Numbered from the stretch's first letter, positions 1 through 3,671 are shown. The stretch: DNA of 32,100 bases from Gemmatimonadota bacterium (GCA_003221825.1 QHUE01000164.1:1-32100), one strand, 5' to 3'. The notes: generated by a model not told the origin, from the sequence alone. A program made the numbers and translations.

Positions 1-1
1 C

Positions 2-181
2 GGGATCGAGATCGTGTGGTCCACAGGGTTTAGTGGTCTTACAATGCGTTTGCAAACAGCCGACAGCGGGGCGACTCTCACAGGCCAGGCAGAAACGTTC
101 TGGGACTTCCCCCGGGAGGTCCAACGGGCGCCCGTGCAGGCGAAACGGGTCGAGTGTCAAGAACTCGACACAGCGAGGTGA
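2..181 (+). CDS. C-terminal part of hypothetical protein (5' end outside window)
   Basis: Open frame 2 reads GIEIVWSTGFSGLTMRLQ...ETFWDFPREVQRAPVQAKRVECQELDTAR to TGA 179-181. Not in the ORF track; read manually. Confidence 0.5.
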   Translation, partial: GIEIVWSTGFSGLTMRLQTADSGATLTGQAETFWDFPREVQRAPVQAKRVECQELDTAR

Positions 182-384: not shown

Positions 385-724
385 CTCCGTACGACGCGCG
401 CTGAACATCGCCGCGATCTTCGTGCTCGTCCTCGGTGTCAGCGTGGTGGCGCTGCTTTATTGGTTCGGACATGGAGAATTGCGCGATGCGGCACGCGCAT
501 CACTCAAGGTCGACTTGCGCAATCTCGGCGTCGCGGAATCGCTGTATTTCGCGCAGCATCACACCTACACCGCCGTCCTCACTGAGCTGGCAGACTTTCA
601 TCCTCGCAGCAATGTATCGGTCGAACTGGCCGACTCGACCGGCTGGGAAGCCACCGCGGTCGAAACGAGACATGCGCAGGTGTGCACGTTTGGCTCCGGG
701 GACGTGACGGTGAAATGTCAGTGA
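377..724 (+). CDS. Membrane-anchored type IV pilin-like protein
   Basis: Probable TTG start. TM helix, then LKVDLRNLGVAESLYFAQHHTY (pilin alpha-1C-like), GWEATA and a C-terminal Cys pair. No class III signal cleavage site. Confidence 0.5.
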   Translation: MNDSVRRALNIAAIFVLVLGVSVVALLYWFGHGELRDAARASLKVDLRNLGVAESLYFAQHHTYTAVLTELADFHPRSNVSVELADSTGWEATAVETRHAQVCTFGSGDVTVKCQ

Positions 725-891
725 GGAGGATCGTGAGGCACGCATGGTCGTTGGCGGCAGCCGGACTCGCTCTCACGCTCGGCTCAACCCGCCGGGCGGC
801 GCATTCGTCGCGCTGGCGATCGATCTCGAGGTCGCTCTGCGGACCACCATCGCCCCACCCCATCGACATCGCCTACCGCGGAAAACGCCGC

Positions 892-1084
892 TATTATGGA
901 AATGGGAGACGGAAGCGGTCTCGGACGCGTATACGTCCGCTGGTCCCGCGTGTTGCCATCCCAACTGGTCACCAGGGTTCGACTCCCATCTTGTTCTGCC
1001 TTAAGGGTCCAGCGGTGAGACCGCATCCCTCGCCCGGCCCTGCAGGCTCACGCCTCCGCTGAGCGCGGGAGGGCCCTTAAGGTG
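892..1084 (+). promoter_or_regulatory. Putative -10 element (TATTAT 892-897) followed by a structured cis-regulatory 5' leader of the SPFH gene
   Basis: Complementary segments: 902-908/983-989, 915-922/1017-1024, 922-927/934-939, 937-947/1005-1015, 999-1010/1071-1082, 1046-1050/1060-1064. Confidence 0.6.
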
Positions 1085-1879
1085 GAACTCATTCTCGCAA
1101 TTGCAGGCGCCTTCTTCCTGTACCTTCTGTGGCGTACACAGCTTGCGTCCATCACGGTCTTCGAATACGAGCGCGGCCTCCGCTTCGTGCGCGGCCGCCT
1201 GCGGAGCGAATTGGGGCCCGGCCTCTACCGATACTTGCGCGCGTACACGGTCATCCGGAAGGTCGACACGCGGCCGGTGCAGCTGCCCGTGAATGGGCAG
1301 GAAGTATTGAGTAAAGACGGCGTAGCGGTGAAGGTAAGCCTGTCTGCCGGCTATCGCGTGACGGATGCGCGGGCCGCCACGCTCAACGCCGACAACTACA
1401 TAACCGCGCTGTACACGGAACTGCAGCAGGCGCTACGCGCTGCCGTGTCCGCAACCGAAGTCGAGACGTTGCTACAGAATCGTGCGGAGTTGGGCCCGCA
1501 GATTCTGCGGACCTGTCAACCCGCCGCTGAGCGACTGGGCCTCGTGCTCGAGCGGTTAGCGATCCGCGATCTGACGTTGCCGGGTGATCTCAAGAAGATC
1601 TTTGCGCAGGTTGTGAAAGCGCGGCAGGAGGGACTCGCGGCGCTCGAGCGCGCCCGCGGTGAAACTGCGGCGCTCCGCAATCTCGCCAACGCCGCGCAGA
1701 TGGTGCAGCGCAATCCTCAGCTGCTGCAGCTGCGGCTGCTGCAGGTGGCCGGGCAGCAGACCGGGACGACTCTCGTTATCGGCATGCCGCAAGGCGCCAC
1801 GCCGATTCCGCTCCGCGAAGGCGCTGCGGATGTCGAGGCTCTACCGACCGAAGGGCAAACCGATAAGCCTGCTGAGTAG
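1082..1879 (+). CDS. SPFH/Band 7 (slipin/stomatin-like) membrane protein
   Basis: N-terminal TM; VFEYERGLRF..G, QEVLSKDGVAVKV, IRDLTLP and ERARGETAALRNLANAA..LLQLRLLQ are typical slipin motifs. SD GGGAGG 1067-1072. Confidence 0.9.
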   Translation: MELILAIAGAFFLYLLWRTQLASITVFEYERGLRFVRGRLRSELGPGLYRYLRAYTVIRKVDTRPVQLPVNGQEVLSKDGVAVKVSLSAGYRVTDARAATLNADNYITALYTELQQALRAAVSATEVETLLQNRAELGPQILRTCQPAAERLGLVLERLAIRDLTLPGDLKKIFAQVVKARQEGLAALERARGETAALRNLANAAQMVQRNPQLLQLRLLQVAGQQTGTTLVIGMPQGATPIPLREGAADVEALPTEGQTDKPAE

Positions 1880-3671
1880 GGGCCTCACCGCGGCGCTATT
1901 AATCATCGCGGCCGCTGCCCGGGCGCACGCGCTGCAGCAGCGCACCTACGCCAATCCCATCGACATCGACTACCGCTACAACTTCGAGCAGCACAACGAG
2001 GGCATCTCGTATCGTTCCGGCGCCGACCCGGTGATCGTGGTGCAGCGCGGCAAATACTATCTCTTCGAAACGATCGGCGACGGTTACTGGGAGTCCTCGG
2101 ACCTCGGTACGTGGCGTCACATCACGCCATCGCGCTGGCCGCTGACCGACGTCGTCGCGCCCGCGGTGCTGGCGGTGCGCGATACGATCTATCTCCTGCC
2201 GAGCACGACGAGTCCGCTGCCGATCCTGATGCTCACCGAGCCGGCGACCGGCCGCGTCGAGTTCTACAATCGGCTGTTGCCCTGGCTGCCCATGGCGCGG
2301 GCACGCGAGGCCAACGTCCTGGCAAAGCCCGATTCCGTGCAGCCCGGTCCCTGGGATCCGCAGTTCTTCTACGATCCTGACACCGATCGCTGGTTTCTCT
2401 ATTGGAATTCGTCGAACGCGTACCCGCTGCACGTCATCGAGCTCGATAAGAGCAGGCAGCTCGCATATAAAGGAACGCCCAAGTGGCTGTTCGGTCTCGA
2501 TCCGGCGCAGCATGGCTGGGAGCGCTTCGGCCAGGACCATCGGGATTCGACCATCAAGCCGTTCATCGAAGGCTCCTGGATGACGAAGCACGGCGGCCGC
2601 TATTACCTCCAATACGGCGCCCCCGGTACGGAGTACAACGTCTACTCGACCGGCGTCTACACCGCCGACGATCCGCTCGGCCCATTCACGTATGCGCCCT
2701 ACAATCCCGTGGCGTACAAGCCGGGTGGATTCGTGCAGGGCGCCGGGCACGGGAACACCTTCCAGGATGTCTACGGCAACTGGTGGAACACCGGCACGCC
2801 GTGGATCGCCGTGAACTGGAATTTCGAACGCCGCATCGGACTGCATCCCGCGGCCTTTGACGCCGCCGGGCAGCTGCACGTGGACACGCGGTTTGGCGAC
2901 TTCCCGCACTGGCTGCCGACCAGGCCCGGGCAGTCGAGCGACGACCTCTTCACCGGCTGGATGCTCCTGTCATATCGGAAGACCGCCACGGCGTCGTCGG
3001 CACTCGACAGCTTCCCGCCGAACGGAGTCACGGACGAGAATCCTCGCACGTTCTGGGTGGCGCGTCAGAATCGGCCCGGCGAGTGGCTCTCGATTGATTT
3101 GGGCGGGACGTACGACGTCAAAGCGATTCAGGTGAATTACGCCGACTACAAGTCTGGTCTCTACAGCACCGACTCGACCGTCGTCACGCGGTTTCGGCTC
3201 CAGGCGTCACTGGATGGGCGCGAGTGGGCCGCCGTCGCGGACCTCTCGGGCGAGCAGCGCGATCGTCCCAACGCCTACATCGAGATGACGATGCCGGTGC
3301 GCGCGCGCTTCGTGCGCTACGAGCACATCCACGTGGGTGCCGCGAATCTCGCGATCAGCGATATCCGCGTGTTTGGCACGCGTTGGGGCGGTGGTCCGCG
3401 TCCGGCGACGCCGGCGGGACTCACCGCGCGGCGTGATCGTGACGCTCGCAACGCCGTGATTACCTGGAAACCGGTCGCCGGTGTCGTTGGCTACAACGTA
3501 CGCTGGGGCATCGCGCCGGCGAAGTTGTACCAGACCTACCAACGCTTCGCCGATCAGGGCACGACGCTGGAGCTGCGCGCGCTGACGGTGGGGCAGGGGT
3601 ACTGGGTGGCAGTCGAGAGCTTCGATGAGAACGGTGTTTCAGCACTGAGCGCGGTGACGCCGATTCGTTAG
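1869..3671 (+). CDS. Secreted family 43 glycoside hydrolase with F5/8 type C (CBM32) and Fn3 domains; start approximate (CTG)
   Basis: Signal peptide (GLTAALLIIAAAARAHA); GH43 motifs SGADPVI, WDP, IEGSWM, GAGHG; discoidin motif DENPRTFW...ARFVRY; Fn3-like C-terminus. Confidence 0.85.
   Translation: MLSRGLTAALLIIAAAARAHALQQRTYANPIDIDYRYNFEQHNEGISYRSGADPVIVVQRGKYYLFETIGDGYWESSDLGTWRHITPSRWPLTDVVAPAVLAVRDTIYLLPSTTSPLPILMLTEPATGRVEFYNRLLPWLPMARAREANVLAKPDSVQPGPWDPQFFYDPDTDRWFLYWNSSNAYPLHVIELDKSRQLAYKGTPKWLFGLDPAQHGWERFGQDHRDSTIKPFIEGSWMTKHGGRYYLQYGAPGTEYNVYSTGVYTADDPLGPFTYAPYNPVAYKPGGFVQGAGHGNTFQDVYGNWWNTGTPWIAVNWNFERRIGLHPAAFDAAGQLHVDTRFGDFPHWLPTRPGQSSDDLFTGWMLLSYRKTATASSALDSFPPNGVTDENPRTFWVARQNRPGEWLSIDLGGTYDVKAIQVNYADYKSGLYSTDSTVVTRFRLQASLDGREWAAVADLSGEQRDRPNAYIEMTMPVRARFVRYEHIHVGAANLAISDIRVFGTRWGGGPRPATPAGLTARRDRDARNAVITWKPVAGVVGYNVRWGIAPAKLYQTYQRFADQGTTLELRALTVGQGYWVAVESFDENGVSALSAVTPIR

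Follow-up and report, generated by a model that had tools for sequence, protein, structure and literature searches.

A conserved leader RNA with a T-loop hairpin ahead of SPFH genes in several phyla, a candidate for an uncatalogued cis-regulatory family

What is the long leader that precedes an SPFH gene in a Gemmatimonadota genome, and how might it act on that gene? The question is raised by a stretch of 32,100 nucleotides (nt) from a Gemmatimonadota bacterium (GCA_003221825.1 QHUE01000164.1:1-32100), referred to here as the window, which means the whole stretch of DNA that was analyzed. An original prediction, made from this sequence, had described the leader as a two-state switch resembling a thermometer or riboswitch, in which an OFF fold buries the Shine-Dalgarno (SD) sequence and the GTG start codon of the SPFH gene and a competing ON fold releases them. 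The leader at 904-1088 (+) is one member of a family of RNAs of about 185-200 nt, of which 36 distinct full-length members and two divergent Mycobacterium members were collected. Their predicted fold is supported by covariation, and an SPFH homologue lies directly downstream on the same strand in 38/38 members. The leader looks like an uncatalogued structured cis-regulatory RNA family, absent from Rfam 15 and from the searched literature. Its parts in the window, including paired helices (P) given in base pairs (bp), are as follows.

892-897 (+): -10-like box TATTAT, read from the sequence; the predicted transcription start is at about 903-905, at the foot of P1
904-962 (+): 5' domain, a rod of stacked helices P1 to P3, from the consensus fold and pair counts
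904-907/959-962 (+): helix P1
911-912/956-957 (+): helix P1a
915-918/946-949 (+): helix P2
919-920/942-943 (+): helix P2b
922-927/934-939 (+): P3 hairpin with its loop at 928-933
913-914 facing 950-955 (+): internal loop of the 5' domain, AA facing GUGUUG
963-974 (+): linker with a near-conserved YUGG, the site of an optional P4 hairpin in other members
975-987 (+): tRNA-type T-loop hairpin, reading GGGTTCGACTCCC, stem 975-977/985-987, loop UUCGACU at 978-984
993-1088 (+): 3' domain, a three-way junction, from the minimum free energy (MFE) and consensus folds
993-1010/1071-1088 (+): helix P5, 18 bp, a long inverted repeat holding the GTG start
1012-1016/1020-1024 (+): P6 hairpin
1026-1029/1067-1070 (+): helix P7a
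1031-1038/1058-1065 (+): helix P7b
1042-1047/1052-1056 (+): P7 tip, conserved UGCAGG...CCUCCG
1067-1072 (+): SD-like GGGAGG within P7a and the top of P5, read from the sequence
1082-1879 (+): SPFH/Band_7 gene of 265 aa, with its GTG start within the 3' strand of P5, from the list of open reading frames (ORFs) and Pfam

Relatives of the leader were found by several routes. A DNA similarity search matched 2/41 genomes, namely the window's own and the 99% identical G022 of the same genus, where homology to the window starts abruptly at about 888, just 5' of the TATTAT, and the upstream gene differs. Homologous elements were also present upstream of SPFH genes in G130 and G132, genes that had been located by protein search and not through the RNA. 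In the set of three elements from the window, G130, and G132, compensatory changes occur in 20 of 58 predicted pairs, and P1 reads GGGAG/CUCCC in two sequences and GCGAG/CUCGC in the third. No such element stands upstream of a partial SPFH copy in G134. A covariance model of the 5' domain (R1) returned only the three known copies over 151 family genomes. Three conserved blocks (GGAAGC, GCGYGUWGCC, and GGGUUCGA) were then used as a search pattern, which gave 56 loci in GTDB contigs (one genome per species) and 67 in metagenome contigs; R1 scored strongly in 15 of the former (E ≤ 7.5e-8) and 33 of the latter (E ≤ 2e-8). Duplicates, truncated copies, one error-laden contig, and false hits are excluded from the set of 36 sequences.

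A full-length covariance model (R2; 191 positions, 50 pairs) was applied to the window and 99 of the 123 pattern loci. It returned 35 members at 83.8-174.7 bits, one Mycobacterium locus at 33.3 bits, and one false hit (L097) at 20.4 bits, and the 63 remaining sources gave no match, which leaves a clean gap. When R2 was run over 41 genomes of the Mycobacterium genus, a second Mycobacterium member was obtained (G316, 36.8 bits), which mismatches the search pattern by reading CUGUGUGUUGCC. The stem of its T hairpin, GAGGUUCGAAUCCUC, is compensated, and so is its P1 relative to the first Mycobacterium member (CGACGCCG/CGGCGUCG against GGCGCCG/CGGCGCC); here too an SPFH gene follows downstream of the element. 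Two weak model matches were rejected as non-members, one lacking both the T-loop and an SPFH gene (G219) and the other lying within coding sequence (G287). One metagenome contig (L152) carries a truncated second match to the 5' domain at 1-60 (-), about 330 nt upstream of a full copy at 390-485 (+); the copy on this contig has several single-base indels relative to the window, and an assembly or read-error artifact is possible.

The members found in genomes comprise eight Gemmatimonadota, two Acidobacteriota, one Planctomycetota, one Phycisphaerae, one Nitrospira, two Chloroflexota (Herpetosiphonaceae and Chloroflexales), and Mycobacterium syngnathidarum, with phyla assigned from the organism names.

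The structural evidence comes from an alignment of the 36 members made with MAFFT from sequence only, for which a consensus fold was calculated by RNAalifold. Of the 50 pairs predicted, 36 show compensatory changes. The pair cells (1798 in total) are paired in 94.9% of cases, compared with 77.3 ± 0.6% in shuffles, none of which reached the observed value (0/500), and with 45-50% in slid controls in which the partners were moved by 1-3 columns. The covariation score is 0.563 versus 0.220 for the shuffles and 0.10-0.15 for the slid controls. Compensatory pairs make up 15/17 in P5, 4/4 in P7a, 8/8 in P7b, 3/5 in the P7 tip, and 4/6 in P2/P2b. For example, 19 sequences have AU and 17 have GC at the P2 pair of columns 22-53, P1 is GCGAG/CUCGC instead of GGGAG/CUCCC in L066 and L096, and a joint change from A-U to G-C is seen in the P7 tip of eight sequences. 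The P3 hairpin is formed in 36/36 members (loop GUA in 15, AUC in 8), and the stem of the T hairpin is paired in 35-36 of the 36; in the linker, 18/36 members but not the window have a predicted P4 hairpin with 3 bp or more. Columns kept in at least 34/36 members outside the pattern blocks include the C and U of the P3 loop, the top of P5, the P6 stem, the junction A, and UGC.GG...CC.CCG of the P7 tip. The column pairs with the highest mutual information are consensus pairs, and the mutual-information scan of the 36-member alignment gave no supported non-nested pair and no pseudoknot signal. Covariation thus supports a predicted fold in which a rod at the 5' end (P1-P3) is followed by a tRNA-type T-loop hairpin and then by a three-way junction that P5, of about 18 bp, closes.

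The 199-nt leader stretch of the window is more stable than chance, with an MFE of -93.0 kcal/mol versus -76.5 ± 4.6 for dinucleotide shuffles (z -3.61; 0/200 shuffles as stable). As the reverse strand is nearly as stable (z -3.35), the strand is not given by folding energy alone. It is given by the G-U pairs that are abundant in P5 (e.g., UG in 17, 12, and 13 sequences at three pairs), since these would be A-C on the opposite strand, which places the RNA on the strand of the gene (+). Single-sequence folds also mislead: the MFE fold of the window picks a closure of 902-908 with 983-989, the very helix with which the original prediction had closed the 5' domain, and the family does not support it. 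This helix reaches 78% paired only since GGGAG fits either of two CUCCC copies, and where P1 is GCGAG/CUCGC the compensating strand is the internal one at 959-962, not that of the T-loop. As a separate observation, the 5' GGGAG (904-908) is complementary to CUCCC both in the 3' strand of P1 (959-962) and in the 3' strand of the T hairpin (983-987), and the second of these pairings (columns 9-13 with 100-104, five core pairs) would be possible in 28-36 of the 36 members.

All sequence features named in the original prediction (the TATTAT, the T-loop, the hairpin, and the OFF and ON complementarities) can be found in the window at the positions that it gave. Both of its OFF helices have proven real, as 999-1010/1071-1082 belongs to the 18-bp P5 and 1026-1033/1063-1070 corresponds to P7, and both covary in the 36 relatives; its hairpin at 922-939 is P3, and the T-loop-like hairpin at 975-987 is conserved. 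Covariation upstream of homologous genes hence backs the helices of the OFF state (P5, P7, and P3) but not those of the ON state, to which we return below.

The SPFH homologue downstream of the element was recognized at E<1e-3 in 37 members, and in the last of the 38 (L109) the match has E=0.001 with only 105 nt of sequence to compare. The start codon is never more than 36 nt away from the element, and the genes beyond the SPFH gene vary among loci. In a phylum sample of 401 genomes, four have an SPFH orthologue at E ≤ 1e-40, and the RNA is present in all four. R2 matched 2/151 genomes in the phylum sample (plus one weak non-member), 1/151 in Planctomycetota (the centre genome only), and 1/41 in the family to which an acidobacterial member belongs (besides a weak match, G357, at 25.5 bits), and the copy number is one per genome in 5/5 member genomes. 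The RNA and the SPFH gene are a rare and patchily distributed pair. The SPFH protein of the window shares 72% identity with its counterpart in an acidobacterial member, 52-68% with those in other Gemmatimonadota members, about 51% with those in Planctomycetota and Nitrospira members, and 32-35% with those in Mycobacterium members, identities that fit movement of the RNA-gene pair between lineages. No copy of the leader was found in plasmid and phage collections, nor the search pattern in viral contigs, and these collections lend no support to an origin from a phage or plasmid.

Conservation of the leader exceeds that of the gene that follows. Relative to the window, the identity of leader versus coding sequence is 191/193 versus 743/798 in L063, 178/192 versus 206/277 in L134, and 161/178 versus 148/206 in L104. 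In G022, the leader differs at 2/193 positions and the coding sequence at 55/798, of which 40 are third codon positions. Because the leader has the higher identity in each comparison, it is more constrained than the coding sequence and under stronger purifying selection. A locus in Herpetosiphonaceae (L090, oriented 1671-2820) has an intact leader (127.8 bits) but may hold a disrupted SPFH gene: its SPFH frame ends after 136 codons, of which only residues 24-67 match the window protein, and the two small minus-strand ORFs that follow resemble, by eye, a toxin-antitoxin pair of the MazF/AbrB type.

The SPFH protein of the window carries a Band_7 domain (PF01145; 103.8 bits versus a cut-off of 23.6, E 1.5e-29, residues 26-194). 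Since it scores just 39.4 bits with the NCBIfam HflK equivalog, far under the cut-off of 159.4, the protein is, as judged from profile scores, not HflK. SPFH matches at E ≤ 1e-20 occur in 103/151 family genomes, a tally that takes in two unpublished genomes with low-identity matches only, and nearly all have 26-34% identity; a housekeeping copy of this class is encoded on another contig of the window's own genome. Close relatives among the 151 family genomes are limited to G130 (53%), G132 (50%), G181 (54%, with the gene cut by the contig end), and the partial G134 copy (49%). By these identities, the SPFH gene of the window is classed as an accessory paralogue. It was also considered as a defense-system gene and rejected as such (PADLOC, 0 families).

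The original prediction had the structured RNA start right after a -10-like box, which is borne out by the position of the box in the family. A TAnnnT hexamer is found in 29/36 members with its end 6-11 nt (in 28 of them 6-9 nt) ahead of the second P1 base, compared with 28/630 upstream control windows. The seven members without a positioned box include all five that have a run of 4-7 U after P5 (L087, L109, L120, L137, and L149). A scan with the sigma-70 consensus gave 0 promoter sites at the window leader. As for transcripts, two soil RNA libraries of one study contain contigs that span the junction of leader and coding sequence (926-1330 and 956-1197) at a depth of 2-4, with DNA carry-over possible. 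Transcript starts and ends cannot be read from contigs of this depth, which give weak support for co-transcription of leader and coding sequence.

Around the start site, the arrangement varies. A start codon was called in 31 members. It lies 14-23 nt past the model end in 22, within the 3' strand of P5 in six (the window, L063, L130, L113, L142, and L134), and at 6 nt (L104), 36 nt (L038), and -15 nt (L090, with an alternative GTG at +18) in three others. From the GTG start to an ITVFEYERG motif the distance is 26 aa in the window and 24-29 aa in 23 members with a downstream ATG, L104 (33) excepted. Positions -14 to +3 are predicted to be unpaired with a mean probability of 0.01 in the six sequences from the window's clade and of 0.23-0.67 in 22 further members. 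The burial of SD and GTG that was originally proposed hence holds for the window's clade but not for the family as a whole, the start site being predicted as buried in 6/28 members analyzed. The SD of Planctomycetota-type members (GGAGGUGAG) is able to pair with the 3' strand of the T hairpin and the linker (about -8 kcal/mol), not above what composition gives.

Is the element already known under another name? With Rfam 15 (4227 families), 0 matches were obtained for window positions 600-1400 at E ≤ 10; 15 member loci at the gathering score gave no match but one unrelated tRNA, and six member loci at E ≤ 1 gave nothing on the element. The original prediction, which recognized no named RNA family in it, agrees with this Rfam check. 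The Rfam tRNA model in particular did not match the element even with thresholds as loose as E ≤ 1 to 10 (window; six member loci), and ARAGORN reported 0 tRNAs in the window and nothing over the element in 16/17 member loci. In the remaining locus (L055, Chloroflexales), ARAGORN calls a 92-nt 'tRNA-Ala (tgc)' at 1484-1575 (-) over the 5' domain and T-loop, a call that is not made in its close relative L090 and that shows how tRNA-like the T-arm region is. A T-arm with a GGUUCGANUCC-type loop is present at 975-987, and a cloverleaf with an acceptor stem is not. A tRNA gene or integration-site remnant was rejected on the ARAGORN and Rfam results, the element being single-copy. A leader peptide was likewise rejected, as the 40-codon ORF at 896-1018 has no counterpart in relatives, which differ by indels. 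A full-text literature search returned no relevant description; subscription journals and supplements lay outside its scope, so an earlier account is possible.

On balance, the leader is probably a ligand- or factor-sensing cis-regulatory leader of the SPFH mRNA and, as such, an orphan riboswitch candidate, a view that we hold with reservations. The leader has the conserved, covarying, and structured domain expected of a riboswitch (36/50 compensatory pairs, 94.9% paired, upstream of SPFH genes in 38/38), and its placement in the 5' untranslated region (UTR) is predicted. It would act in cis on SPFH expression, most likely at translation initiation, and a conserved tertiary core consisting of the internal loops, the T-loop, the junction, and the P7 tip would sense the ligand or factor. 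In the window's clade, the folded form would be OFF, because P7a/P5 traps both SD and GTG. For most of the other lineages, folding would leave the start site open, so that the output stage would differ between lineages; varied output arrangements around a constant core would be as in riboswitches. We further propose, tentatively and as a possibility only, that the family is a new riboswitch class with an aptamer of about 190 nt built around the T-loop and the three-way junction, which would control a horizontally spreading SPFH gene in at least five phyla. The signal would perhaps be an ion or metabolite linked to membrane stress.

Several points weigh against the sensing leader. The stability of P5 (the 3' domain with the start site folds at -58.7 kcal/mol in the window) makes it difficult to imagine a simple equilibrium switch. 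The search for a conserved mutually exclusive structure found none, the competitor-helix tests in 36 members not rising above composition: either strand of P1 against the 45 nt after P5 gave a mean z of 0.07 (5' strand) and 0.02 (3' strand), and the 3' strand of the T-loop with the linker against the 30 nt after P5 gave a mean z of -0.36, with only 4/36 below -1.5. The 5' end of the leader is unproven, as one RNA-library contig (832-983) crosses the proposed promoter. The invariance of GGAAGC, GCGYGUWGCC, and GGGUUCGA is partly ascertainment, these blocks being pattern requirements, and the same applies to the T-loop GGGTTCGA. Just five members were reached without the pattern, namely the window, G022, G130, and G132 by DNA or protein similarity and G316 by R2, of which G316 alone fails to match it. 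Lastly, the tie to one non-enzyme gene family fits a protein-binding or purely structural leader equally well.

The latter two readings deserve closer comparison. A leader that binds a protein or forms an RNA-protein particle, with the SPFH protein itself (autoregulation, co-assembly) or a tRNA-handling factor that reads the T-arm as partner, seems to us unlikely though well worth considering. Restriction to a single gene family in 38/38 members is typical of autoregulatory leaders, the hairpin matches the tRNA T-arm consensus, ARAGORN threads the L055 5' domain as a tRNA, the leader is better conserved than the coding sequence, and no conserved alternative helix was found. However, no conserved partner gene accompanies the locus, as the downstream genes differ, the T-stem has merely 3-5 bp and no acceptor-like helix, and ARAGORN is negative in the window and 16/17 loci. 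SPFH proteins are also not known to bind RNA. A constitutive 5' structure that shields the mRNA from 5'-end-dependent decay and tunes translation without switching would explain why P1 begins within a few bases of the predicted 5' end, why the start site is predicted as open in the 22 members outside the window's clade, and why no alternative fold is conserved. For such a role a terminal hairpin alone would suffice, yet about 190 nt are under strong selection, with conserved unpaired bases, the T-loop, the junction, and a fixed P7 tip, and the start site would be blocked by the fold itself in the window's clade; we regard this explanation as improbable.

More improbable still is a separate or processed small RNA that ends at P5, by termination or RNase III cleavage, and is merely linked to the SPFH gene. 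The U-run after P5 in 5/36 members and the near-perfect duplex of 17-18 bp in P5, a possible RNase III substrate, speak for it, against 31/36 members without a U-run, a start codon that is invariably on the element's strand and at most 36 nt away, and, as weak evidence, RNA-library contigs that bridge leader and coding sequence. Least credible of all, and in our estimate already disfavored, is the originally proposed two-state switch with its ON state of 915-922/1017-1024 and 937-947/1005-1015. The complementarity does exist in the window (8/8 and 10/11 pairs), a repeat search gives the pair 904-922/1017-1035 at 84%, and the start site is truly buried in the window's clade. Across the family, however, the ON helices are near shuffle level (64.4% paired versus 61.8%; covariation 0.165 versus 0.145), and the first of them is intact only in five near-identical sequences. 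It loses 3/8 pairs in L134 and 2/8 in L104, uncompensated; in these nearest non-identical relatives all consensus P1-P2 pairs are intact, and L134 shares the buried GTG. The competing native fold is also far more stable. With ON helices that lack covariation and are broken in close relatives, the specific two-state mechanism fails. A plain thermometer or equilibrium switch is unlikely too, given a folding energy of -58.7 kcal/mol for the 3' domain in which the start site lies. Throughout the family, moreover, the start site does not sit in a weak helix that could melt, being predicted as open in 22/28 members.

The surroundings of the leader and SPFH gene offer a few further observations. A 26-nt direct repeat (854-879 and 1951-1976; 88% identical, 1097 nt apart) flanks the two, and both copies encode a PIDI(A/D)YR stretch. 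The first copy is part of a short frame (682-890) that resembles a signal peptide and runs up to the leader, and the second lies near the N-terminus of a GH43 and F5/8-type-C protein (1830-3668, Pfam). In G022, the left flank of the cassette is a different gene and the right flank is syntenic with the window. The repeat may be a trace of a rearrangement that put the leader-SPFH cassette here. Over the whole window, the sole Rfam match is the bacterial small signal recognition particle RNA (RF00169; 28721-28820 (-), 44.3 bits versus a gathering score of 40), 27 kb away.

Little is understood about what triggers the bacterial SPFH (stomatin/flotillin/HflK-like) proteins, which are widespread as membrane scaffolds. 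In this family, a large and strongly conserved RNA goes strictly with one group of SPFH orthologues, in phyla far apart from each other, and is better conserved than the protein. For RNA biologists the family offers a structured RNA that is new, well supported, and clear in its genetic read-out; it is also a possible sensor whose input would point to the role of the SPFH protein. Should the family indeed be a new riboswitch class, its ligand would open a first direct way to learn what this SPFH group responds to. As the family includes, in divergent form, cultured Mycobacterium species, it is open to experiment.

How, then, does the leader compare with known systems? Among start-site-sequestering RNAs such as the thermometers ROSE, fourU, and the cspA 5' UTR, SD and start codon are within a helix, as in the window's clade. 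The SPFH leader differs in that its 18-bp helix belongs to a domain of -58.7 kcal/mol and burial is seen in only 6/28 members, and it is far larger and more conserved than the known thermometers. The E. coli ompA 5' UTR, which stabilizes its mRNA by a 5'-terminal stem-loop, likewise has a helix at the extreme 5' end of the transcript, which in the SPFH leader is a predicted one; the complexity and sequence conservation of the latter are far beyond those of a protective hairpin. The tRNA T-arm, the tRNA-like domain of tmRNA, and the bacterial YrlA RNAs form a third group for comparison. The hairpin GGGUUCGACUCCC shares with the tRNA T-arm the 7-nt UUCGANU loop closed by G-C, whereas the leader as a whole has no cloverleaf, as P1 closes before the T hairpin and no acceptor helix comes after it. 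The raiA and nhaA-I motifs are orphan riboswitch candidates or structured leaders from the comparative surveys of Weinberg and Breaker. From such candidates, the SPFH leader differs by matching no Rfam 15 family, by its tie to a single non-enzyme gene family, and in that no conserved alternative helix or terminator was found. It is like them in having several covarying helices and conserved unpaired bases within a 5' UTR, in starting at the promoter and abutting the start codon, and in its occurrence in multiple phyla with an output stage that varies between lineages.

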